A stretch of 64,000 nt of DNA from an uncultured Dehalococcoidia bacterium (GCA_958296245.1 OY282458.1:234886-298885), one strand, 5' to 3'; counted from the stretch's first letter, positions 5 to 63,096 are shown. Notes: generated from the sequence alone by a model not told the origin. Numbers and translations: made by a program.

Positions 5-178
5 GTAACTGTTCGGTCTTCGTGAGATACTTCTCGACCGGCGTAGCCCCGGTAGAGCAGACGTCTTAAGATCCCAACCCGCCCCTTGGTAACTGGGGGC
101 ACAGCCCCCAGCCCCCCTGTCAGAAGGGAGAATCTCCTCGACTCCCCCCCTCGGGTCTCACAGAGCCTGAACAGTTTC
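5..178 (+). mobile_element. MITE-like element, family A
   Basis: Starts GTAACTGTTC and ends CTGAACAGTTTC (imperfect terminal inverted repeat). Core CCGCCCCTTGGTAACTGGGGGCACAGCCCC and GGGTCTCACAGAG are shared with 46841-47003. Confidence 0.75.
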
Positions 179-203
179 CGATGCTTTCCGATACACACGC
201 TTG

Positions 204-233
204 TTGACAATACTCAGGGTTGTATGGTAGGGT
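204..233 (+). promoter_or_regulatory. putative sigma70 promoter of rpoBC
   Basis: TTGACA (204-209), 18-bp spacer, extended -10 TGgTAGGGT (225-233). Confidence 0.5.
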
Positions 234-378
234 ACTTCGGTCGCCTTATGTTCCATCACTGTTGCCTTTTCCCTTTCACCGGGCCGCGCCTTGGGTGGCG
301 TGCGCCTTCTCTTGGGTCCTCTACACTACAACGAGCCTTCTAGGTCGAAGCCTCACGGCTTCAGGAGCGTAGCAACGT

Positions 379-3300
379 ATGGCATCTACTGCCGCGCGAG
401 TCACGAATGGTTCGAACAGAGCCGAGCACACGTACGCTAGGGCCCCTCGGGTTCTCGACGTACCCAACCTCATCCAGGTACAGATCGACTCCTTCGAGTG
501 GTTCAAGTCGGAAGGTCTGAAGGAGCTCTTCGAAGAGATAACCCCCATCGAGGACTTCCCCGGCGGGCGTTTCGAGTTGAGCTTCTTAGAGCACAGGTTC
601 GAAAAGCCGCCGTACACGGAGGACGAATGCCGGGAGCGTGAGTCCACCTATTCGGCGCCGTTGCACGTTACCGTAGAGCTTCATACCAAGGCGCCCGGCC
701 CTGCCGAGGGAGAGAGGAAGCTACAGGACCTGTTCATCGGCGACATCCCCATGATGACGTCGACCGGGACGTTCGTAATCAATGGGGCCGAGCGGGTTGT
801 GGTGAGCCAGCTCGTGCGGTCCCCCGGCGTCTACTTCACGACGAGCGCGGACACGACCACCGGCCGCCTGCTGGCCTCCGCCAAGCTCATTCCCTACCGC
901 GGGGCTTGGATGGAGTTCGAGTCCAGCAACAGGGACGTCATATCCGTAAAGGTGGACCGCAAGCGTAAGAGCCCCGTGAGCATGTTGCTCAGGGCGCTGG
1001 GATACGCGACCGATCAGGAGATCGCGGAGCTGTTCGAGGACATAGACGTAGACCCCGATCACCAGTACGTCAAGGCGACCATCGATAAGGACACCCCGGT
1101 CGCGGACCAGGAGGAGGCTCTACTCGAGTTCTACCGCCGACTGCGGCCCGGAGAGCCTCCCAGTAAAGACAACGCCAAGAACCTGCTCGAAAACCTGTTC
1201 TTCAACCCGCGCAGGTACGACCTGGGTCGGGTGGGGCGGTACAAGCTGAATCGCAGCCTCGGCCTCGACATCGGCCCTGAGGACCGTACGCTGTCGCCGA
1301 AAGACATCATCAGCTTGCTGCGCGCAATGATCCTCATCAACAGGGGCGAGCGCGAGGCGGATGACATAGACCACTTGGGCAACCGGCGCGTGAGGGCGGT
1401 CGGAGAGCTCATCCAGAACCAGGTCCGGATCGGTCTGCTGAGGATGGAACGCGTGATAAAGGAGCGCATGACCACTCAGATGGACCCGGGGACGACCACT
1501 CCGGCGGCGCTGATCAACATAAGGCCGGTGGTGGCTGCCGTAAGAGAGTTCTTCGGCGGGTCCCAGCTCTCGCAATTCATGGACCAGACCAACCCACTGG
1601 CGGAGTTGACTCACAAGCGGAGGTTATCGGCTCTGGGGCCGGGCGGCCTGTCCAGAGAGCGGGCCGGGTTTGACGTCCGGGACGTTCATTTCTCGCATTA
1701 CGGCAGGATATGCCCGATCGAGACGCCGGAAGGCCCGAACATCGGCCTGCTGGGGTCTATGGCTACCTATGCCCGCACCAACGAGTACGGCTTCATAGAG
1801 ACGCCGTACCGCACGGTATCCAAGGAGATCGGCAGCGGCGACCCTAGCCTTGTGGGCCGCCGCGTCAGCGAGACGGTCAAGGACGAGAGCGGCAGGTCGA
1901 TACTCAATGCAGGCGGCCTCGTGTCCAAAGGCATACGTACCCGAATATCCAAGCTTCCTGAGCAGACGATACAGGTGGCGCCGTACGTGTCGTCGAACCG
2001 CGAGGACATCGTATACCTGTCCGCCGACGAGGAAGAGCGCGTGCGGGTGGCGCAGGCCAACTCCCTACTGGACGCCCAAGGGCAGTTCTTGGACGATAGA
2101 GTGGAGACGCGGCACGGGGATTCCGTGTACATGGAGAGCCCGGAGAACATCGAATACATGGACGTGTCTCCGATGCAGCTCGTCAGCGTATCGACCGCGC
2201 TGATACCGTTCCTCGAGCACGACGACGCCAACCGGGCGCTGATGGGCTCGAACATGCAGCGCCAAGCGGTGCCGTTGCTGCGGCCGGACCCGCCCCTGGT
2301 GGGCACCGGAATGGAGCACCAGGTGGCGCGAGACAGCGGCCAAGTCGTCGTGTCCAAGGCCTCCGGGGTTGTCACCGAGGTATCGGGCCAGAGGGTGACA
2401 GTCACCACCGGCGACGACAAGAATGAGGTCCACAAGCTGCAGAAGTTCGTTCGCAGCAACCAGGGCACGTGCATCAACCAGCGTCCCATCGTGAGGCAGG
2501 GCGACTTGGTGAAGACCGGGGACATACTGGCAGACAGTTCGTCCACCGCGTTTGGAGAGCTCGCGCTTGGACAGAATACGTTAGTGGCCTTCATGAGCTG
2601 GGAGGGCTACAACTTCGAGGACGCGATCATCATCAGTGAAAGGCTGGTCAAGGAAGATCGGTTTACTTCGATCCACATCGAGAAGCACGAGGTGGAGTCA
2701 AGAGACACGAAGCTCGGGCCGGAAGAGATCACGCGCGACATCCCTAACGTCGGTGAGGAGAGCCTCCGCAATCTGGACGAGGAAGGGATAGTCAGGATAG
2801 GGGCAGAGGTAAGCCCCGGCGACATCCTGGTGGGTAAGATCACCCCGAAGGGGGAGACCGAGCTGAGCGCCGAGGAGAAGTTGCTGAGGGCGATCTTCGG
2901 AGAGAAGGCCAGGGACGTCAAGGATACGTCTCTCCGCGTGCCCCACGGCGAGCGGGGGAAGGTGATCGAGATCAGGGTCCTCAGCAAGGCCAACAACGAC
3001 GAACTGCCCCCCGGCGTCAACAAGCTTGTAAGGCTCTGGGTAGCGCAGACGCGCAAGATCGCCGAGGGCGACAAGATGGCGGGACGGCACGGGAACAAGG
3101 GGGTAATCTCCCGAATTCTGCCCGAGGAGGACATCCCGTTCCTTCCCGACGGAACGCCCCTGGACATCATCCTGAACCCCATAGGCGTACCGTCTCGTAT
3201 GAACCTCGGCCAGGTCCTCGAGACACACCTTGGCATGGCGGCAAAGACGCTGGGGTTTCGGGCGGTCACCCCGGTATTCGACGGGGCGCGGGACGTATCC

Positions 3301-4149
3301 GTCGAGGACGCCTTGGCGCTTTCGTGGATCATCGAGAAGTCGGGGGCGGTGGACCCGAGGCCGTTAGAAGGCACGGGCCAATCGCTCATCGACCTAGGCA
3401 TCGTTCGGGCTTGGCTCGGCGAACGGGGATACGATTACGACCAACTGTTCAACTCCCAAGCACCGGGTGAGGCGTCGGATGCCGGGCTCCGTATCTGGTT
3501 CCAGGAGGAGAGGGGGCTGGACGTTTCGGACAAATCGACGGGGGAGCTCAGGGACGAGATGCTCAGACTGAACCGAGAGGAGCAGGTGGCTGCCCCGGTG
3601 CTGGGCAAGTCCATCCTGTACGACGGTCGAACGGGTGAGCCGTTCGACCAGCCGATCACGGTAGGCTACATCTACATGATGAAGCTCATGCACCTAGTGG
3701 AAGACAAGATCCACTCGCGGTCGACCGGCCCTTACTCGCTGATCACGCAACAGCCACTGGGCGGCAAGGCGCAGTTCGGAGGCCAGAGGTTCGGCGAGAT
3801 GGAGGTGTGGGCGCTGGAGGCGTACAGCGCTGCCTATAACCTCCAAGAGATGTTGACCGTCAAGTCCGACGACGTCGTCGGGAGGGTCAAGACGTACGAG
3901 GCCATCGTAAAGGGTGAGGACATCGTTCAGCCGGGCATCCCGGAGTCCTTCCACGTCCTGCTGAAGGAGCTCCAGAGCCTTGGGCTGTCCGTAGAGCTGC
4001 TGTACGAAGAGCCCGACCACCTCGCCCTTGCGGAAGGCGCGGTGGGGGACGGCAACGGCGGCGTGCAGCGCCTGGGAGATGGTGCGGGGTTCGGTGGGCT
4101 TGGGGAGGATGCCCCAGTGGTCCAGCTCCCAACGGTGCTCGAAAGTTAG
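379..4149 (+). CDS. rpoB: RNA polymerase beta subunit
   Basis: Motifs [55 protein letters not shown]. Confidence 0.99.
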
Positions 4150-4270
4150 AAATGGCGCAGGGGGCTAGGCCGCCGGTGACGAGGGGCGGCACGGCCCGAG
4201 GGGAGCATCCGGCCTGAGCCTGCCGGCCAAGCCGGTTCGGTATCCAACGAGTCTGACAGGAGAATGCCAC

Positions 4271-8293
<4,023 letters not shown>

Positions 8294-8329
8294 ACGGCTC
8301 CGCACCGGCAGTCTGCGGGAAATACGGGC

Positions 8330-13908: not shown

Positions 13909-14784
13909 ATGAAGATTCACCTCGTAGACGCCACGTACGAATTGTTCCGGGCGCACTTCGGGTCCCCTCCGGCCGCGGCGCCGGACGGACGCCCGACCGG
14001 CGCCGTCCGAGGCTTCATACAGACCATGTTAGCCCTGCTGGCGCAGCCCGGCGTCACCCACGTAGCGTGCGCGTTCGACCACGTCATCGAATCGTTCCGC
14101 AACGACCTGTTCGACGGTTACAAAGACGGCTCCGGGGTCCCGCAGGTCCTGGCGGAGCAGTTCGATACCGCCGAGGAGGCCGCCGCGGCTTTGGGGTTGG
14201 TCGTCTGGCCAATGGTCGAATTCGAGGCCGACGACGCCATAGCCACGGCGGTCCATAGGTGGAAGGACCATCCGGAGGTAGACCAGATCGTTATCTGCTC
14301 GCCCGACAAGGACATGACCCAGCTCGTCCAGGGCGACAAGGTGGTGTGTCTGGATCGACGGCGCGGCTTGGTCGTCAACGAAGACGCCGTTGTGAACAAG
14401 TTCGGCGTCCCGCCGGAGTCCATCCCTGACTACCTGGCCCTTGTAGGCGACTCCGCCGACGGCATACCGGGAGTCCCGCGTTGGGGAGCCAAGTCGACGG
14501 CGCAAGTGCTGGCTAGGTACGCGCACGTCGAGTCGGTGCCCGAAGATGCGGCGGACTGGGACGTGTCGCCCCGAGGCGCTGCGTCTATGGCGAGGCAGTT
14601 GACCCAGCGGCTCCGCGAGGCCCTTCTCTACCGGAGCTTGGCGACGCTGCGCGCGGACGTGCCTCTCACCGAGTCCCTCGACGACCTTCGCTGGGAAGGT
14701 GTGCCGCGTCGTCGCTACACCGACCTTTGCCGCCGCCTTGGTCTGCTTCGCCTGCTGGACGCCCCAGCCAGATGGTCGGAATGA
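13909..14784 (+). CDS. stand-alone 5'-3' exonuclease / flap endonuclease (PolA N-terminal-like)
   Basis: LVDA, FEADD, DKD, H3TH motif LVGDSADGIPGVP. Confidence 0.9.
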   Translation: MKIHLVDATYELFRAHFGSPPAAAPDGRPTGAVRGFIQTMLALLAQPGVTHVACAFDHVIESFRNDLFDGYKDGSGVPQVLAEQFDTAEEAAAALGLVVWPMVEFEADDAIATAVHRWKDHPEVDQIVICSPDKDMTQLVQGDKVVCLDRRRGLVVNEDAVVNKFGVPPESIPDYLALVGDSADGIPGVPRWGAKSTAQVLARYAHVESVPEDAADWDVSPRGAASMARQLTQRLREALLYRSLATLRADVPLTESLDDLRWEGVPRRRYTDLCRRLGLLRLLDAPARWSE

Positions 14785-14806
14785 CCGCGTAGCATTGTCA
14801 TGGCGT

Positions 14807-14831
14807 GAGATATAGTTCTAGACTATATCTC
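14807..14831. promoter_or_regulatory. perfect inverted repeat (operator-like) upstream of the glycosyltransferase cluster
   Basis: GAGATATAGT-tctag-ACTATATCTC, AT-rich, overlapping a possible TTGTCA...TAGACT promoter. Confidence 0.45.
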
Positions 14832-14863
14832 TCACACCATTCTGGGCCTGGTGGAGCACCGCA

Positions 14864-17284
14864 GTGAAGTTGCAATGGGATTTGATTCAGCCTGACAATC
14901 TGCGGCGCGCCCTGACCGCGCGCTATCAGAACATAAGTACAGGGAGGGGGGAAATTCCTTCTTCCCGGTTGCGCAACGGGCTGTTCGCCCTATTCGTCGC
15001 CGGCGTCTTGGCCTACAGCGCCGGGTTCGCCTGGTACATGCTGGCCCGCTTCGACCTTATCAACCTCATCCGCGACGTCAACGGCGACGACTCCTTCTAT
15101 TACTTCCAGATTGCATATAACCTCGCCTCGGGGAACTTCTCCACCTTCGACGGCGGCATCACCCAGACGAACGGCTACCATCCCATCTGGTTGCTGCTGA
15201 TCACGCCCTTCTACTGGGTGTTCGACAAGGAAGCGGCGCTGTTCGGCATCAAGGCGTTTGAGATCATGCTCATCGCAGGCGGGGCGGCGCTGGTCGCCGT
15301 GGCCGCCCGGCTGGCGCGCCTGCCTTGGATTCTGCTGTTCGCCGCGCTGCCGCTGCTCTACCAGTACCACGGCTTATTTCTTGGACTGGAAGCGGCCGCC
15401 GCACTGTTCATGTTGGGGCTGTTCTTCTTGGCCGTGATGCTCTACGCGCGGGACCCGGCGCGGTGGAAGTGGCCGCTGGCCGCCGCCGCCTTTGCCCTGC
15501 CCTGGGTGCGCCTGGAGTACGTAGCCATATCGCTGGCGGTGACAGCGGCGCTCGGTCTCATATGGTGGTCGAGGCGGGGGGAATCACCCTCACCCGTCGA
15601 GGGAGAGGGGGCAGCTTCCTTCTCATCGCGGGAGTCACCCTCACCCCAGCCCTCTCCCTTGAAGGGAGAGGGGGCAAGGCTTGGCGCCCTATCTGCGCTG
15701 GACGCTGTGGTTCCGCTGCTGGGCGCGGTCGGCGGCATCCTGGTGTACTTCGCATACAACGGGCTGGTGTTCGGAGGCGTGACGCCGGTGAGCGGCGCAA
15801 CCAAGCAGATGTGGTCGCAAGCCCGGTGGGATAACGAAGGCGGATACAGCTTCGTTCAGAACTTCCGGGATGTCTTGCAGATTCCCGTCTTCGACTACGA
15901 GCTGCTGGCCGCGCTGGAGGTCTGCGCCTACGTCGTTCTGGTCTGGTGGCTCGCCCGCCGTTCCAAGAACCGGAAGGACTGGCTGCTGTTTGCCTTTCTG
16001 GTCTGCGTGTTCGGCCTGGCGGTCGGCCACCTCGCCAAGTTCGCGCAGACCGTCCTCACCATACACCCTGTCTATGGGAGCTATGTCTGGTACTTCGTCC
16101 CGGCGTACCTGATGATGGCGCTCATCATTCCCGTAAGGTGCTATATCGCTATCCACTTCATCCGCCGTTTCATCGGATCGAGGTGGCCATGGGCAGCCAA
16201 CATTCTGAGCGTGGGCATCGTGGTTGTCGGAGCGTACTTCCTGCTTGCGAATGCGGACTTCATGGGGCCATTCCGGTATGCTGACCGGGCAAGCGAGTCA
16301 ACCAGCCGCGAATGGGAGGTTACTTCTCATATGGGTGTGCAGGTTATGGACCACGTGCTGCCCGATGGCAGCGTGGTAGGGTCGTGGTCCGCTGGCGTCA
16401 TCGGGTACTTCTCGCGCTTTCCGGTGGTGAACCTAGACGGTCTGGTCAACTCCTACGACTACGCTCAAAGGGAAGGAAGCGACACCACCACGTTCCACCG
16501 GCGTTACGGGATTACCCACTTCGCCGACGTCTGGCCCGTCATTCAGGACGTGGACGCGATGCTGTTCGAAGGGCCGCCGTATCACCACTCTCGCCATGGT
16601 GAGCTCCAATTCAATATCGGGCTCGCCGAGCCGCCGGAGACGTCATCGGACGGGAACAATCGTTCCGACTGGTTCTGGGAACGGATGGAGCCGCACTTCG
16701 ACTATCAATCGGGCGATGTCGGAGTGATCGTGGACGGACGGATGGCGCAGGCGTTCGCCAGAGATTGCGCGCCGGACGAGCTGGCAGTGTGGTCATGGAC
16801 TGGCGCGGCTGAACCGTTCCCCAAAGCCTGGACGCAAACGAAGACGGGGCTGTGCGTGGACGCGCTCGTGCTGCCCCGCGACGCCTCCCCTCCGGTGCGG
16901 GCGGATGCGATGACGGCCGGCGATTACTTGGCAGACTTGGTCGGAGACCGCGAACCGGTAATCCGCTCCGACTGGGACGTGTATCTCAGCGAGAACCAGC
17001 TGTCGTACGTGAAGGAGACGTGCGCCCCGGCGGATACGGAGGCGTGGTTCTTCCTGGCCCTGTGGCCGGTGGACGTGAACGACCTCCCCGACCGGCGCCG
17101 GCAGCACGGCTTCGACAACCTGGACTTCCGCTTCGACCAGCGCGGCGTGATATTCGATGGGAGATGTATGGCGGCGGCGGCTCTCCCTGAGTATGACATT
17201 GCCCGCATCAGCACCGGCCAAGTACGTGTTGTGGACGGCGGTTACAACCACCTCTGGGAGGGGGAGATACGGCTCAATGAGTAG
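14864..17284 (+). CDS. GT-C-type integral membrane glycosyltransferase-like protein with shared C-terminal domain
   Basis: Many TM helices, DD motif in first loop ([12 protein letters not shown]...TNGYHPIW), AGVIGYFS...NLDGLVNS. Confidence 0.7.
15584..15676 (+). repeat. REP-like palindromes inserted in frame in a CDS
   Basis: TCACCCTCACCC...GGGAGAGGGGGCA twice, translating as SPSPVEGEG and [13 protein letters not shown]. Confidence 0.7.
16952..17284 (+). repeat. shared C-terminal module, copy 1
   Basis: EPVIRS.WDVYLSE...C...[19 protein letters not shown]...GFDNLDF...C...LPEYDI...WEGEIRL, also at 19095-19448 and 21131-21463. Confidence 0.95.
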
Positions 17285-19448
17285 CGGCCCAAGCGCAGCG
17301 ATGAAGGGACCGACGTCGAGCGGGCCGCTAAAGGGCACATCCCTCAGTCTCATTCTGGCCTGCCTGCCCTGGCTGGCGCTGTTGGCCTGGCTGGCCTCGG
17401 TGTCGTGGTTCCTGACCGACGACGCCTTCATCAGCTTCCGCTACGTCCGCAACCTGCTGGAGGGCCACGGCCTGGTCTTCAACCCCGGCGAGCGGGTGGA
17501 AGGCTACTCCAACTTCCTGTGGGTGCTGGAGCTGGCCGCCATCTGGCGGGCGCTGGGCGCGGCCCCGGAGGACGCGGCGCCGTGGCTGTCGGTGGCCTTC
17601 ACCGCCGGAACAGTCGGGGCGCTGGCATGGTGGGTCTATCGCCTGCCCTCGCTGCGAAACAGAGGACTGGTCGGCTGGATGGCCTTGGGGTTGGTGTGCA
17701 GCAGCGCGACTTTCGCGGTGTGGACCTCGGGCGGCGGGCTGGAAACGCGGCAATTCACATTCTTCATCGTAGTGGCCGTCGTCTGCCTGAGCCTCTACCG
17801 CGACAGGCGTGCCGGCCTGCTGGCGGCGTCGTTCAGCCTGGCCGGTGCGGCCCTGACCCGACCGGAAGGCCCATTGATTGCCGTGTGCTGCTTCGGCTGG
17901 TTCGCGGCGCAGCGGATGGTCGACGCCAAGGGGATGCGGGTGAGCTGGCGCGAGCTGACGTATCTGGCGGCGCCCTTCGTCATCGTAGTGGCGGCCCACT
18001 TTCTGTTCCGCTTCGCCTACTACGGCGAGTGGCTGCCCAACACCTACTACGCCAAGCACGTCAGACCATGGTACGAGTCGGGCTTCCGCTACCTGTGGTC
18101 GGCGGCGCTGGAGACGGGGCTGTACCTTCTGATTCCACTGGCTTGGGCCGCTCTGCGGCATCGGTGGCGGGACACCCGCGACGGGACTTATGCCCTGGTG
18201 CTGCTGCTGATCGCCGTCCACATGGCATACGTGATGCGGATTGGCGGCGACCATTTCGAGTATCGCCCGCTGGACTTCTACTGGCCGCTGCTGGCGCTGC
18301 CGGCTGCTGGGGGGATTGCCTGCATCGGCTCGCGGATCGCCGCCTTCGATTGGCGGCGCATACCCCACTCCCACCGACTCCGGCGACCGGGAGCAAGGAC
18401 TTGCGCGCTCATCCTGTTCATCCCCGTCATCTTCTACTGCGGCGCCATACAGGCAGCGCTATTCTTCGAGGGCGCCAGGATTGACAAACGAATCTGGAGA
18501 CTTCACATAGAGCTCGACGAGCGCAACGCCCGCTGGCTGCTGGCCGCGCCGGGGATGTCGGCGTTGACCGCTATCTCCAACGACCTGCGCCGTCAGTCTG
18601 TCGAGCAGGATGTCGCTTCACCATTCGCGGAACACCGCGAGTTCGCCAACGAGCAGATGCGCTGGTGGCAGCCCTACGAGAATATGGAGCGGGGAGTGAT
18701 TCCTGAAGACGCGCTGATGGCAGGCGGAGGTCTCGGCAGGTTCTATTACCTGCCGGATCTGAAAGTCATCGACATCTTCGGCTTGACCGATGCGACCGTG
18801 GCGCGCAATCCTGTCACAATGCCCAACCACCAGCGCGCAATCGCCCACGATCGCCAACCGCCGCCCGGATACATAGTGGAGCGCGGCGTCAACTTTACAG
18901 TGCATCCTGCGGCCTCCAGCGAAGCCGAGGCTCTCGACCGAGGTCAGTACGCCGTGAAGGTCGGCCCCGGCCTGTGGATGCCCTTCGACTCCTTCGACCA
19001 TGATTGGGTCGCGGCGAGCTTCGCCGGACACGACTTGCGGAGGGCCGTTGCAGAGCCGGTGGGCGATTACATGGCAAGACTGATCAGAGACAGCGAGCCG
19101 GTGATTCGCTCCACCTTCGACGTATATCTCAGCGAAAACACGCTGACCTACGTCAAGGAGACGTGCGCCCGCGCCGACACGGAGGCGTGGTTCTTCCTCG
19201 CCCTGTACCCGGTTGACGTGAACGACCTGCCCGACCATCGCCGGCAGCATGGCTTCGACAATCTGGACTTCAATTTCTACGGGAGCGGCTTGATGTTCGA
19301 CGGGAGCGGCGTGATATTCGACGGGATATGTATGGTGACGGCGGCTCTCCCTGAGTATGACATTGCCCGCATCTTTACCGGCCAAGTACGTGTTGTGGAA
19401 GGCGGTTTCAACCACCTCTGGGAGGGGGAGATACGCCTTGAGCAGTAA
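17277..19448 (+). CDS. GT-C-type glycosyltransferase-like protein (AftB-like N-terminal motif) with shared C-terminal domain
   Basis: [52 protein letters not shown] overlaps the previous stop and follows GGAG. Confidence 0.75.
19095..19448 (+). repeat. shared C-terminal module, copy 2 (with 21-bp internal duplication)
   Basis: Aligns with copies 1 and 3. The extra GSGLMFD comes from a tandem ACGGGAGCGGC.TGAT.TTCG. Confidence 0.95.
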
Positions 19449-21463
19449 CCGCCGCGGCCTGCGGGGATTCGCGCTGAATCTGTGGCGCGCCGTCAGGGCG
19501 CGCCATCAGAACATAAGTACGTGGGGGGGGGTATTTTCTCCCTACCCGTTCTCCGGAACGGCTGCTCCTTGCGGCGTTCGTGTGCCTGCTCGTAGTGGCG
19601 GCGGGTCTGCGCTTCTATAACCTGCCGGAGGGATCCGTATCGCATGACGAAGCGGTTGCCGCCAATAATTCGAGGGGCGCGCTCTCGGAGGTAGTCTCCA
19701 ATACCCGCCATCGCAACTCCTCGCCTATCCTGTATCCCTTGGCGCTGTGGGCGGTCCAGAAAGTGGATGTCTCCGCCTTCAGCGTCCGCGTTCTGCCGGC
19801 GGCGTCCAGCGTTCTGACCGTGGCGGCCTTGCTCTTCCTGCTCCCTCGCGCCGGGGTTGCCCGGTGGGCCGCGTTTCTGGCGGCTCTGCTGGCGACTCTT
19901 TCGATTGCCGCCATAGAGCACGCCCAGGATGCGCGGGAATACTCCATCGACGCGCTGTTGGCCGTGCTGATGGTAGCGGGGCTGCTGTGGTATCTGCGGG
20001 ACGGCAGGAAGGCCCTGCTCTGCGTTGCGCTGTTCCTAGCGCCGTTGCTCCAGTACGGCTTGGTCCTGTTCGGCGCCGCTGTCATTGGCGCCGCTATCGT
20101 TCTACCTCCTCCCTCGACCTTGGCGGCGCCGGAACAGGATTCATACATAAGCCGGATTCGCAATTGGCTCGAGCGGCGCATCGCTCTGGTCTTGCCCGCG
20201 GCGTGCTTTCTGGCTGGGTGCGCCATAAGCTACGCGGTTACTTTGCGCTATCAGTGGTGGGAAGGGGGCTGGGGCTATCTATCGGCGTCTTACTATCAGG
20301 GAGGATTCGATGCGCCCGCGATCTTCGAGTTTTCGATTGATGGGATTCGGAGGTTATTGACGCTTCATTTGCCGGAAGCCGTTGCCGTATTGGCGGTTGG
20401 GGCATTGGCCCTTATGCTGATGGCATCCCTGAAGAGGCGGCGATTCGATGCCATTGCAATCTTGGCCCTGCTTGCCGTTGGCATCGCCCTTTTCGCCGCC
20501 CTGCTGACTCTGTATCCCCTGGGCGGGATTCGCCACAACCTCTATCTGGGGCCGGTCATCTTTCTGGCGGCCGGCGTCTCCATCCATTGGACGGCGGATA
20601 GTCTGGCCGCGCTCACGCGCCGGGCGTGGCTGGCTCCGGCGCTGGCCGTTGCGGCGGCTGGCACAATAGCCTTGGCCGGGGTGGGCGCGATGAGGCAGGA
20701 CAGTCCGTATGTGCAAGGCTGGTATGAGAAAGGCTACAACGCCAAGGCCGTTCTCGCCTTTCTGGAAGAGAATGTGGAAGAAGGAGACATGGTTTACGCA
20801 AACATGTGGACAGCCCCTTCTATGAAGTTCTATCAGGATGTGAAACCGAGCAACTACCACTATGCAAAGGTAGAATGCTGGAGGGATTTCGGAGAGTGTA
20901 TCCGGGAAATGCTTCGGTTAGCCGTCTCGCGCCCCAATGTTCCAGATAGAATCTTCTTGGTCCACGGCAACAAATCAATACTGGAGGAGTTGGGGCTGCT
21001 GGGAGAGCTAATTTCAGTTGAGCTTGTCACTGACGGAGATTTCAATGTCTCTCTGATTGCGAACGTCAAAGAGTCCATCGAATCGGCTTACAAGACGTTC
21101 GTATCCGCCTACGAGGCGGTTGTATCCGGCGAACCGGTAATCCGCTCCGACTGGGACGTGTATCTCAGCGAAGACACGCTGGTCTACGTCAGGGAGCCGT
21201 GCGCCCCGGCCGACACGGAGGCGTGGTTCTTCCTGGCCCTGTACCCGGTTGACGTGAACGACCTTCCCGACGATAGCAAGCGGTACGGCTTCGACAACCT
21301 GGACTTCAAGTTCGACGAGCGCGGCGTGATATTCGACGGGATATGCATGGCGACGGCGGCTCTCCCTGAGTATGATATTGACCGCGTTAGCACGGGCCAG
21401 TACGTGCCCGCGGAAGACGGTTACCACCACTTCTGGGAGGGGGAGATACGGCTTGGGGAGTAG
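19438..21463 (+). CDS. ArnT/PMT-like (GT-C) glycosyltransferase with shared C-terminal domain; 5' end frameshifted at a G9 tract (intact ORF 19580-21463)
   Basis: LRFYNL...SHDEA, R.YS motifs. The TTG-19438 frame ([15 protein letters not shown]) resembles the first GT's N-terminus ([15 protein letters not shown]) and joins the main ORF if G9 (19523-19531) is G8. Confidence 0.7.
21131..21463 (+). repeat. shared C-terminal module, copy 3
   Basis: Aligns with copies 1 and 2 at both DNA and protein level. Confidence 0.95.
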
Positions 21464-21636
21464 TCGAAGGGCCGTATTGGACCCGCACGTCTACCCGACA
21501 AGGCTACGTTGAAGCAGTAGCAGGCCGTCTGAGCGTCTGAGGTGTGGCGCTGGCAGGCCTCGGCCTCTATAATTCAACCAACCCCCCACGCCTAGCGACG
21601 TCGGAGCGACAACCGGTGGGTGAGTTGATAGAAGAC

Positions 21637-62218: not shown

Positions 62219-63096
62219 GCCGGGCCGAGCCCCGCCCGCTGCTGCAGCGGCTACGGCTCTTCCCTGGGGCCGTGCGTCTCCAGGAGACGGCGTTCGCCCT
62301 GCCGTTTGCGTATTCCGGCATGGTCTTGGCGGCCGGAGGGCTGCCTGCGTGGGGCGAGTTCATCTGGATCACGGTGGCCATGGTGAGCGCGCGGACGCTG
62401 GGCATGTCGGCCAACCGTCTCATCGACCGCCGCCTCGACGCCCTGAACCCCCGCACGGCCCAGCGTCACCTTCCCGCCGGCCTGCTGGGCGCGTCCGACG
62501 TGGCGGCGCTGGCGCTGGCGGCCGCCGCGATCTTCTTCTTCGCGGCGTGGAGGCTCAACACCCTGGCCCTCGCACTGGCGCCCGTGGCCGCAGCCTATCT
62601 CGTGCTCTACCCGTACGCCAAGCGTTTCACCTGGACGGCCAGCGTCCTGTTGGGCTGGGCCCTAGCCATCGCCCCGTCGGCGGCGTGGATAGGCGTGCGC
62701 GGCAGCCTGGGTTGGGAGCCGGTGTTGCTGTCGACCGCCGTCGCCATGTGGGCGGGAAGCTTCGACATCCTGTACCACGCCCAAGACGTGGGGGCGTATG
62801 AGCGCAACGGGCTGCACTCCGTGGCGCGTAGGTTCGGCCTAAAGGCGGCGTTCCGATGGTCGAAGGTGATGGACACCCTCGCAGCCGCGTTCCTCGCCGC
62901 CGCCGGCATCGCCCTGGGCCTGAGCTACCCCTACTACGTGGGGTGCGCCGTTGCGGCGGGGCTGATGGCCTACAAGTACCGGATGGTATCCCCGGACGAC
63001 CTCTCCCGCATGGACGCGGCGTTCTTCCGTGTGAACGCCTACGTTTCGGCAACCGTGTTCGTCTCGGTGCTGGCGTCGCTGCTCGTGTCCGGGTAG
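62197..63096 (+). CDS. mqnP: UbiA-family prenyltransferase (MqnP-like)
   Basis: FALPFAY, NRLIDRRLDALNPRT..RHLP.G, YAKRFT, FDILY..QD. Confidence 0.88.
   Translation: MERVRDLGRAEPRPLLQRLRLFPGAVRLQETAFALPFAYSGMVLAAGGLPAWGEFIWITVAMVSARTLGMSANRLIDRRLDALNPRTAQRHLPAGLLGASDVAALALAAAAIFFFAAWRLNTLALALAPVAAAYLVLYPYAKRFTWTASVLLGWALAIAPSAAWIGVRGSLGWEPVLLSTAVAMWAGSFDILYHAQDVGAYERNGLHSVARRFGLKAAFRWSKVMDTLAAAFLAAAGIALGLSYPYYVGCAVAAGLMAYKYRMVSPDDLSRMDAAFFRVNAYVSATVFVSVLASLLVSG

Follow-up and report, generated by a model that had tools for sequence, protein, structure and literature searches.

Three membrane proteins encoded side by side in the genome of an uncultured Dehalococcoidia bacterium carry unlike cores and end in one near-identical C-terminal module, and this locus raises the question of what a common ending does on enzymes that are otherwise different. 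An initial annotation of the stretch analyzed here (the window, 64,000 nucleotides) had suggested that the module may be both an extracytoplasmic docking or sorting tag and a recombination anchor that lets glycosyltransferase cassettes be added, swapped or deleted while they stay translationally coupled.

The three-gene array and its site

The features of the array, all on the + strand, are as follows.

14785-14863, +, left border of the array, a unique intergenic stretch
14864-17284, +, gene 1, core family A, polytopic membrane protein with DDSFYY (open frame)
16952-17281, +, module copy 1, with beta-sandwich fold and Cys pair (alignment, structure model)
17255-17279, +, junction between genes 1 and 2, GGGAGGGGGAG inside the W-E-G-E codons, followed after 10 nt by the gene 2 ATG
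17277-19448, +, gene 2, core family B, AftB-like GT-C with DDAFISFRY (open frame)
19095-19445, +, module copy 2 (alignment)
19438-19531, +, junction between genes 2 and 3, with TTG start, shared leader and G9 run (start at the gene 2 stop)
19580 (probably 19438)-21463, +, gene 3, core family C, PMT/ArnT-like with HDEA (open frame)
21131-21460, +, module copy 3 (alignment)
21464-21556, +, right border of the array, unique sequence

The most likely start of gene 2 is ATG 17277, which overlaps the end of gene 1, rather than 17157. For gene 3, 19580 is the first start codon of the assembled frame, and the true start is probably 19438. The open frames and alignments agree with the earlier description of three enzymes in a row sharing one C-terminal module. 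Over the last ~115-135 residues, copies 2 and 3 are 76% and 66% identical to copy 1; pairwise module identity among the three copies is 66-76%, mean column identity is 79%, two Cys are invariant, and copy 2 is longer than copies 1 and 3 by a 7-residue insert. All the DNA strings that had been quoted as shared between copies were found exact in their places: a 41-nt string twice only, at 16952 and 21131 (0/100 shuffles matching), GAGTATGACATTGCCCGCATC at 17189 and 19353, and TGGGAGGGGGAGATACG three times only, at 17255, 19419 and 21434.

The comparison of cassette content across relatives that had been proposed for this locus revealed a difference in a genome of the same genus (G001). Homology to G001 ends at 14784 and returns at 21557 upstream of plsY; in G001, plsY lies directly after exo53 and the three-gene array is absent at that site. 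The array is an indel relative to this genome. The left border contains a near-perfect palindrome (14804-14835), neither a repeat of border sequence nor a copy of the palindrome was found elsewhere in the genome, and no recombinase was found at the array borders. An integron-type gene cassette array was set aside, the borders being without a repeat found elsewhere in the genome. The main cluster also encodes GT4, GT2, a Wzy_C-like protein, a sulfotransferase, a methyltransferase and a GFO/IDH/MocA oxidoreductase, and the array is one among several paralogous arrays, not a unique cassette site.

Distribution of the module

When the module was searched as a profile HMM through the genome, as the initial annotation had advised, it was not confined to the array: the 32 matches comprise 29 copies on 24 open frames plus remnants, and ~1% of the genes in this small genome carry the module. 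At least six core types carry it, including a PQQ dehydrogenase-cytochrome c lipoprotein. In public data, 2,381 protein clusters have the module at E<=0.001, 843 of them at E<=1e-30, with 1-10 copies per protein in tandem. The last module ends <=15 aa from the C-terminus in 258/268 proteins, and the Cys pair is kept in 765/769 module copies; family D is without both residues, which were lost together. Module-only open frames also occur in other genomes, such as one of 142 aa in L059.

Related loci in other genomes were searched for with a 3-row module alignment as the query. The module-bearing genomes are labelled Chloroflexota, Proteobacteria, Nitrospirota and others, and whole genes with an amino-acid identity of 72-82% are present in genomes that carry other phylum labels. 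Among the sampled class relatives, the module was present in 2/301 genomes, this genome counted. The domain had not been recognized in the initial annotation, and library searches bear this out: none of 28 module copies gave a Pfam match better than E 0.12, NCBIfam gave no match on the module, and the best scores in the ESM Atlas were <=0.83, all to entries named "hypothetical protein". The module defines a domain family of >2,000 clusters that is missing from curated libraries.

Fold and location of the module

The AlphaFold2 model of the module (pLDDT 86.4, pTM 0.79) has eight strands arranged as a beta-sandwich. Structure prediction followed by Foldseek had been suggested as a check, and it gave a confident beta-sandwich but no match against PDB at E<=0.001; in a wider search the best solved folds were only generic, namely Ig/FN3-like domains of GH2 enzymes, FN3, CBM56 and CBM9, all at Z<=7.6.

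The proposed extracytoplasmic placement is supported by family F, in which GSDH, cytochrome c and the module follow one another behind a lipoprotein-type signal peptide. Because the module directly follows the cytochrome c domain in a lipoprotein and its Cys pair is near-invariant, it is placed outside the cytoplasm. Further module partners are Wzy_C, Polysacc_deac_1, an SGNH hydrolase and PMT/PMT_2. Like a CBM, the module is a beta-sandwich appended to carbohydrate-active enzymes, with fold matches that are generic. It is therefore from analogy and from the kinds of partner enzyme that the best reading derives, in which the module would be an outer-face Ig-like glycan-binding or tethering domain, as in other GT-C enzymes.

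Enzyme cores

An acidic motif (DD, DxD or DE) stands just past the first membrane helix, with invariant D75/D76 in family A, D48/D49 in family B and D23/E24 in family C, and we infer that it is located in the first outer loop. A crude hydropathy scan and the helices in a low-confidence model indicate that a soluble part comes after a polytopic membrane domain at the N-terminus, the hydrophilic tails being 255-336 aa long. None of genes 1-3 matched a curated family above its cut-off, and every curated match of the cores scored far under that limit. Gene 1, like family A as a whole, had no match in Pfam, NCBIfam or PDB sequence and profile searches, and the PDB sequence and profile searches with families A and C returned nothing at E<=1. 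Gene 2 matched NF041481 of NCBIfam at E 8e-9, with 34 bits vs a cut-off of 1050, and AftB (PDB 9dlf) at E 6.8e-5 over the membrane part only (residues 64-313). Gene 3 matched PMT of Pfam at E 0.13, and weak PMT matches were seen in 6/10 family C members.

The three cores had been called unrelated, which holds for the core of family C, separate from A and B in profile comparison, but is overstated for the other two: families A and B are distantly related, since hhalign joins the two at their DDxF loop regions with a probability of 95% (E 2.6e-8). From a 19-row alignment, a full-length model of gene 1 by AlphaFold reached a pLDDT of 39.3; the gene 1 core is putatively of GT-C type, tied to family B by hhalign only.

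The junction as a dual-coding joint

The terminal residues of the module read W-E-G-E-I/F-R-L-x-E/Q, and in arrays the same DNA also serves the next gene, providing its Shine-Dalgarno sequence and a start codon that overlaps the module end. The claim that the last codons double as the ribosome-binding site of the next gene was thus confirmed, and the start codon within them goes beyond it. A start inside the last codons of the module (TTG at -10 or ATG at -7, counted from the end of the stop codon) was found at 11/24 junctions in this genome and at 35/71 junctions in other genomes; no overlapping start follows module 3. At the junction of genes 2 and 3, TTG 19438 lies 10 nt before the end of the gene 2 stop and opens a 28-aa leader. 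A leader of ~28 aa is common to the unlike core families A, B, C, D and F, the N-terminus of gene 1 retains its 3' half (12 residues), and 11 of the 12 open frames with the leader motif genome-wide are at module loci. A 12-mer containing the anti-SD has three occurrences in the genome. The conserved DNA block runs from ~-316 to ~+20, with a mean pairwise identity of 72-86% vs 39-50% outside. Since the last codons carry the Shine-Dalgarno sequence and the start, and the shared leader follows, unlike cores are linked by a conserved joint of ~350-430 bp made up of the module end and the leader. This junction is a clean case of a coding end doubling as the initiation region of the next gene.

Tracts of G9-G11 occur in seven leaders, so that 7/22 of all genomic G/C runs of >=9 nt fall in 0.45% of the bases and homopolymer tracts stand in the 5' coding region of surface-structure genes, as at phase-variable loci. 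The G9 run at 19523-19531 ends the leader of gene 3, and at this run the leader falls out of frame with gene 3; some other leader-bearing genes are also out of frame at their G tract. A short-read contig over 19452-19586 aligned 140 letters on 135 bases, with 5 gaps and 0 other mismatches, such contigs being blind to minority variants. Frame-break signatures are also present at some other genomic G/C runs, and spurious open frames abound at 64% G+C. Long-read homopolymer error would explain the frame loss at the G tracts as well as phase variation would.

Recombination among the copies

The DNA similarity among copies had been described as mosaic, and genome-wide the paralogs are indeed mosaic. 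Gene 1 alternates between paralogs at 93-100% identity, and tracts of 96-100% identity lie inside cores too and are not concentrated at the module. Among the three window copies themselves the signal is only nominal, with uncorrected run-length p values of 0.022, 0.038 and 0.077 among 105 pairs, 4 of which were at the permutation floor. Groupings in the module tree are at odds with core family: in one named genome the modules from A, B, C and F cluster together, and an AU test rejected monophyly of the family B modules (p 0.0015), the tree having only 115 columns and the group having been set from N-termini but tested after the tree was seen. Core-family labels change 21 times on this tree vs a shuffled mean of 42.6. 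The DNA of window module 1 is 86% identical to module 2 vs 73-82% to family A paralogs.

Regarding the proposal of swappable cassettes at this locus, recombination is evident from the mosaics, the tree and the absence of the array in G001, but the module is not established as the anchor because recombination tracts also lie within cores. The fusions of core and module are common to several phyla and are therefore too old for swapping at this locus to have produced them. The best explanation is a large, recently recombining set of envelope carbohydrate enzymes whose genes are shared across phyla; a selected role of the module or joint as a recombination anchor would be plausible. The region recruits ~2,600-2,900 short contigs in the sampled runs, most of them 90-95% alike, and consensus polishing of the metagenome assembly could have produced part of the mosaic pattern. 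Module-to-module joints in short contigs (e.g. 17220 to 19395 and 19038 to 21195) were rejected as deletion variants, given their 90% likeness, short sides and a paralog-rich metagenome.

Proposed model and alternative explanations

Considering the above results, we propose a modular frame consisting of a ~28-aa cytoplasmic leader, a variable core and at least one disulfide-bonded beta-sandwich of ~115 aa, which would lie at the outer-face C-terminus. Most cores would be GT-C membrane glycosyltransferases using polyprenyl-phosphate sugars, and the module would tether each enzyme to a common surface glycan in the manner of an Ig-like carbohydrate-binding domain, in an organism whose genome gave no PBP transpeptidase domain. 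The joint would couple translation along the array and would also supply homology for recombination, either as a by-product or as a selected trait. On balance, we favor this reading, somewhat better than evenly, namely an envelope enzyme set with one frame, a glycan-binding or tethering module, and a dual-coding joint that couples translation and offers recombination homology.

The joint, i.e. the 3' end of the module with the leader, might instead be kept chiefly as portable homology by which enzyme cores are added, swapped or deleted and the surface glycan is diversified, the protein function of the module being secondary. The conserved DNA block between unlike cores, the same leader and module flanking both GT-C cores and a dehydrogenase, and module remnants or leader fragments at array edges (2018644-2018787, 2035059-2035200, 1608041-1609174) all fit this explanation, as do the mixing of core families on the module tree within genomes, the closeness of window module 1 to module 2 and the indel relative to G001. 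However, a near-invariant Cys pair and a confident fold over 2,381 clusters indicate protein function, near-identical tracts occur inside cores also, no breakpoints are mapped to the joint, module identity partly follows core family, and the borders hold neither recombinase nor repeat; we therefore hold this explanation to be rather unlikely. It is least probable of all, and hardly credible, that much of the mosaicism and the broken frames are assembly or polishing artefacts of a multi-copy family whose biology is merely that of an expanded paralog family. Thousands of short variant contigs are recruited, short-read contigs break at 14933 and 21450, frame breaks coincide with G9-G11 runs and have counterparts at some other G/C runs in the genome, and one short-read contig differs by its 5 gap positions over the G-run region. 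Yet the architecture, joint and leader are repeated in many independently assembled named genomes, the tree incongruence across genomes is independent of this assembly, and error-free contigs, perhaps from the source sample and hence not independent, span both array borders.

The remaining explanations concern the module as a protein. Up to 10 tandem copies and a near-obligate extreme C-terminus are unusual for a CBM, and could point to anchoring instead, with the module as an anchoring or sorting domain that, after processing or by non-covalent contact, fixes the C-termini of envelope enzymes to an outer structure such as an S-layer. It would then be closer to cell-wall-binding repeats or C-terminal sorting domains than to a CBM that binds the acceptor. 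The conserved terminal motif and the module-only open frames speak in its favor, as does the finding of no PBP transpeptidase domain in the 98% complete genome. Against it, the carriers are mostly polytopic membrane proteins, for which sorting is unnecessary, and belong to genomes with the Chloroflexota, Proteobacteria, Nitrospirota and other labels, whose envelopes are unlike; no sorting-domain family was matched in Pfam or NCBIfam, and the terminal motif is also accounted for by its role as ribosome-binding site and start codon. We regard anchoring as quite unlikely, and the sorting tag of the initial annotation fits poorly with polytopic carriers bearing up to 10 copies. Beta-sandwich domains often mediate protein-protein contacts, and the same module is carried by enzymes of one pathway type encoded side by side, so a docking unit that assembles its enzymes into one glycan-building complex was also considered; tandem repeats within one chain are needless for simple docking, and we consider this very improbable.

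Beyond the favored reading of a tethering module with a dual-coding joint, a wider picture may be tentatively drawn, which we rate as possible but less probable than not by a good margin: a cross-phylum pool of envelope-enzyme cassettes, each bracketed by the dual-coding joint and its leader with a slippage-prone poly-G tract. Coupled translation, the shuffling of whole enzymes within and between genomes, and on/off switching of single enzymes would then together generate surface-glycan diversity combinatorially. Should both recombination and phase variation prove real, uncultured bacteria would have a new means of altering their surface sugars.

Comparison with known systems

GT-C enzymes with C-terminal binding domains are already known. 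The combination seen here is that of one unnamed domain on unlike cores, in ~1% of genes, near-absent in the sampled class relatives and yet present with its cores at 72-82% identity in genomes labelled as other phyla. In the parts of the literature searched, no prior description of this combination was found.

The C-terminal domain of type IX secretion is a small beta-sandwich at the extreme C-terminus, as the module is. A T9SS-like sorting domain was nevertheless rejected, since the module has no family match in Pfam or NCBIfam, its carriers are polytopic with 1-10 tandem copies per protein, and they occur in taxa outside Bacteroidota. CdiA-CT/Rhs orphan cassettes carry variable tips after a VENN or PxxxxDPxGL motif, and share with the present loci a conserved coding segment between variable parts, which is potential swap homology, and cassettes in arrays. 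Unlike in those systems, whole enzymes vary here rather than toxin tips, no swaps were observed, and the conserved part comprises a folded domain together with the start and leader of the next gene. Phase-variable glycosyltransferase genes with poly-G tracts include lgt of Neisseria and the LOS and capsule genes of Campylobacter; here too, genes for surface-glycan transferases have runs of 9-11 G in the 5' portion of their coding sequence, but the hosts are uncultured environmental bacteria and homopolymer error is an equally good explanation.

Closer to the favored reading of a tethering module, the C-terminal domain of mycobacterial EmbC is reported to be a lectin-like CBM (PMC3044687). The arabinofuranosyltransferases EmbC, AftD and AftB are GT-C enzymes with an extracytoplasmic C-terminal lectin-like domain that binds the acceptor. 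The membrane core of gene 2 is AftB-like, whereas the module has no detectable sequence match or specific fold match to their C-terminal domains. In the GT136 GT-C enzyme ORF12, which serves O-antigen ribosylation in Citrobacter youngae, the published account describes a periplasmic C-terminal Ig-like CBM that binds the O-polysaccharide acceptor, and an enzyme that works at the outer face and uses a polyprenyl-phosphate sugar (PMC11127046). The likeness is a polytopic GT-C core followed by a beta-rich Ig-like C-terminal domain. Unlike ORF12, the enzymes described here carry one near-identical module on several unlike cores, including a non-GT core, in up to 10 tandem copies, with a Cys pair, and with the translation-initiation region of the next gene written into its end.

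The window array and its shared module

Three adjacent open frames of the window end in one C-terminal domain of about 115 aa, hereafter the module; the enzyme part before it is called the core.

14864-17284, plus strand: open frame of gene 1, ending in the module
17157-19448, plus strand: open frame of gene 2, ending in the module; start placed at ATG 17277
19580-21463, plus strand: open frame of gene 3, ending in the module; leader begins at TTG 19438

The initial annotation had proposed a shared module on these genes, and this was borne out by alignment, in which the other two copies (C-terminal ~115-135 residues) were 76% and 66% identical to copy 1, with two invariant cysteines. The DNA strings that it had quoted were all found exactly, a 41-mer at 16952 and 21131, a 21-mer at 17189 and 19353, and TGGGAGGGGGAGATACG at 17255, 19419 and 21434; chance would give none of the three. 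The array is flanked by housekeeping genes, with tig, clpP, clpX and a 5'-3' exonuclease gene upstream and plsY and pyrF downstream. At its left border, between the exonuclease gene and gene 1, lies a near-perfect 32-nt AT-rich palindrome (window 14804-14835) that occurs once in the genome. A UbiA-family prenyltransferase gene is located 40 kb downstream of the array (window 62296-63033); some lipid-linked pentose donors of GT-C enzymes are made by UbiA-family enzymes.

Module copies and core families in the genome

The module had been noted in the window array, where it is indeed present, and its distribution proved wider, being genome-wide. A profile built from the three window copies gave 32 matches in the 2.69-Mb single-contig genome (G000, contig G000:C1), which were assigned to 29 copies on 24 open frames and two remnants. 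The biggest group of carriers lies at 1.98-2.05 Mb, with lesser groups at 0.56, 1.60 and 2.66 Mb. BLAST of the parts preceding the module defined six core families, and a 1084-aa PMT_2-type protein (genome 1978634-1981888) with four tandem module copies belonged to none of them.

Core families of module carriers (BLAST of pre-module parts)
Family A: gene 1 and four others
Family B: gene 2 and two others
Family C: gene 3 and five others
Family D: three members
Family E: three members, loose relatives
Family F: two members

Family F holds no glycosyltransferase; its proteins combine a PQQ-type glucose/sorbosone dehydrogenase, a cytochrome c and the module, with a lipoprotein-like signal peptide and a Pro/Thr-rich linker in front. 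The two genes are adjacent (G000:C1 2659261-2663614), and they share both the leader and the overlapping TTG start with the glycosyltransferase carriers.

Besides the carriers, the main cluster encodes transferases of the GT4 and GT2 kinds, a sulfotransferase, a methyltransferase, a sugar oxidoreductase and a protein resembling Wzy_C. Between its module-bearing genes lies a PstI-type restriction-modification pair (G000:C1 2038045-2040838), with an endonuclease of PstI/BsuBI type and a methylase of Eco57I type, and a G18 run lies at a GT4/GT2 gene boundary at its edge (G000:C1 2049606-2049623). Directly 5' of the first gene in some arrays stand remnants of the module's 3' third (G000:C1 1608041-1609174, 2018644-2018787 and 2035059-2035200).

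Module fold, conservation and location

Pfam contained no family for any of 28 module copies (best E 0.12), and NCBIfam gave no match on the module. When 1.84 billion representatives were searched exhaustively with a profile, 2,381 proteins matched at E<=0.001 and 843 at E<=1e-30, with at most 10 matched stretches per protein. Among the 782 copies in 268 proteins examined, the cysteine pair was complete in 765 of the 769 having residues at both positions, and in 258 of the 268 proteins no more than 15 residues separated the end of the last copy from the C-terminus. Both cysteines are jointly missing in family D, as expected of a disulfide pair.

AlphaFold2 with a 28-row alignment confidently predicted an eight-strand beta-sandwich (pLDDT 86.4, pTM 0.79). 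Foldseek of this model returned no solved structure at E<=0.001, and a wide VIA search gave only matches of a generic sort (immunoglobulin/FN3-like domains, GH2 accessory domains, CBM56 and CBM9), none above Z 7.6, which is inside the range that VIA itself labels common. Fusion partners elsewhere include Wzy_C, polysaccharide deacetylase, PMT/PMT_2, SGNH hydrolase and GSDH with cytochrome c. The maturation of c-type cytochromes takes place outside the cytoplasm, and the module of family F directly follows cytochrome c; the module is therefore extracytoplasmic. The domain family is large and new; its kind, a beta-sandwich carried by glycan enzymes on the outer face, is a known one.

Relationships of the cores

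Matches of the cores to curated families were weak. Gene 2 resembled mycobacterial AftB (PDB 9dlf, E 6.8e-5), with a match to NF041481 far under the family cut-off, and searches for family A gave no family or PDB match. In a profile comparison the first helix and DDxF loop of family A aligned with those of family B (hhalign 95%, E 2.6e-8), so that cores 1 and 2 are, judged from their profiles, distant relatives. Family C was set apart from both by profile comparison, and weak PMT matches were obtained for six of ten sampled members. Acidic pairs are invariant inside each of families A, B and C. Gene 1 also carries an in-frame insert of ~100 nt (window 15560-15700), absent from paralogs, its sequence being a hairpin-like unit present twice (CACCCTCACCC...GGGAGAGGGGGCA) and coding for a Ser/Pro/Gly/Glu-rich loop; one such unit is held by the paralog at genome 2027417-2027486.

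The junction, the shared leader and poly-G tracts

The unusual part of the finding is the dual-coding joint, where the 3' end of the module overlaps the start of the next gene, together with the leader of ~28 aa that these next genes share. Counting downstream open frames of at least 200 aa, an overlapping start was found in 11 of 24 post-module junctions of this genome, lying 10 nt (TTG) or 7 nt (ATG or TTG) ahead of the end of the preceding stop codon; loci from other genomes have it at 35 of their 71 junctions. GGGAGGGGGAG stands a few bases 5' of this start, the distance being 7 nt for the TTG form seen most often and 10 nt where gene 1 meets gene 2 in the window. Mean pairwise DNA identity across 16 junctions was 72-86% between about -316 and about +20 relative to the stop, against 39-50% beyond these limits. 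The leader consensus from overlapping starts, L-[SN]-S-N-G-N-G-L-[RQ][10 protein letters not shown][TA]-A-R-Y-Q-N-[MI]-S, is common to families A, B, C, D and F, with family-specific sequence coming after it. A strict form of the motif occurred genome-wide in 12 open frames, nine with the module, two fragments next to arrays and one apparently by chance. Gene 2, most probably starting at ATG 17277, has a shorter leader variant that also precedes family B genes in two genomes, and no overlapping start was found 3' of the end of gene 3.

The 24 leader zones cover 0.45% of the genome and contain 7 of its 22 G/C runs of at least 9 nt. All seven are poly-G on the coding strand, 9-11 nt long, in module-bearing genes; by our reading three are in frame (genome 1607906, 1997625 and 2015215) and four out of frame (254408, which is window 19523-19531, 2028100, 2034975 and 2659273). 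Phase-variable transferase genes classically have this arrangement, and the tracts and frame breaks may reflect phase variation; homopolymer error in the long reads explains them equally well, and signs of a broken frame were also seen at certain other G/C runs of the genome. The leader of gene 3, from TTG 19438, falls out of frame with its core from the G9 run at 19523-19531. One short-read contig placed 140 letters on the 135 bases of 19452-19586 with no mismatches and five gaps; a net +5 in this stretch would bring the leader into frame with the core.

Recombination and mobility

Recombination among module carriers is well supported. In sliding windows of DNA identity (positions in open-frame nt), gene 1 is 93-97% identical to the gene at 2025812 over nt ~110-480, 95-99% to that at 2030323 over ~1000-1730 and 92-100% to that at 2032675 over ~1810-2030, and in the module region merely 73-85% to any of these paralogs. 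Gene 3 shows similar paralog switches. Module DNA identity is 73-89% whatever the core family, and window modules 1 and 2 are 86% alike, with module 1 less close to every family A paralog. In a run-length permutation test 4 of 105 module pairs reached the floor (p 5e-4), two of them crossing families; the three window pairs gave uncorrected p values of 0.022-0.077.

A tree of 73 terminal modules, made by a quick method from 115 columns, required 21 changes of core family, with a minimum of 6 and a shuffled mean of 42.6. The A, B, C and F modules of one genome clustered together, and A and B modules of non-Chloroflexota genomes formed a group with 99% support. A single clade of family B modules was rejected by the AU test (p 0.0015), the group being set by N-termini yet tested once the tree was known. 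The same-genus genome G001 has tig-clpP-clpX-exonuclease-plsY with the array absent, homology to the window ending at 14784 and restarting at 21557, and a search of the genome found no repeat marking the array borders. The joint may act as a selected recombination anchor.

Distribution and abundance

Counting this genome, the module occurred in 4 of 41 order-level relatives (32, 25, 2 and 2 matches) and in 2 of 301 genomes evenly sampled from the class; one same-genus genome had zero matches. All data come from metagenome assemblies, and the 41 loci found by a pattern scan of species genomes are all in metagenome-assembled genomes, titled Dehalococcoidia, Tepidiformaceae, Candidatus Entotheonella, Latescibacteria, Gammaproteobacteria/Pseudomonadales, Gemmatimonadota and Nitrospirales. 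Of the 54 carriers in these loci whose pre-module part has 300 residues or more, 51 belong to the core families of this genome. As examples, identity for family A is 77% in a Gammaproteobacteria record (647 aa) and 82% in an Entotheonella record (626 aa); for family B it is 73-76% in Nitrospirales, Entotheonella and Latescibacteria records, and for family E 74% in a Gemmatimonadota record. Because core-plus-module fusions are common to several phyla, these sequence comparisons point to their probable horizontal spread in a common setting.

In four sequencing runs of one sample (X1-X4), summed word depth was 2-12 on the array flanks versus 120-8,300 inside the array, a depth that derives from ~2,600-2,900 short contigs, mostly 90-95% alike, and is no copy number. 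The short-read contigs break at both array ends (window 14814-21495). This fits a module family that is very abundant and variable in the sample.

Proposed function of the module

Every partner enzyme of the module acts on glycans. In G000, which is 98% complete, no PBP transpeptidase domain was matched and a single Mur-ligase-type match was obtained, and the organism may live without peptidoglycan. Considering these partners, the lack of a PBP transpeptidase match and the precedents among GT-C enzymes, we read the module as a putative glycan-binding or tethering domain, which would hold the enzymes on one shared surface polymer. Its nearest precedents are GT-C enzymes carrying C-terminal carbohydrate-binding domains. 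The Ig-like domain of the GT136 GT-C enzyme ORF12 binds the O-polysaccharide acceptor in vitro (PMC11127046), and in EmbC normal chain extension requires subdomain II of the C-terminal domain, a lectin-like CBM (PMC3044687).
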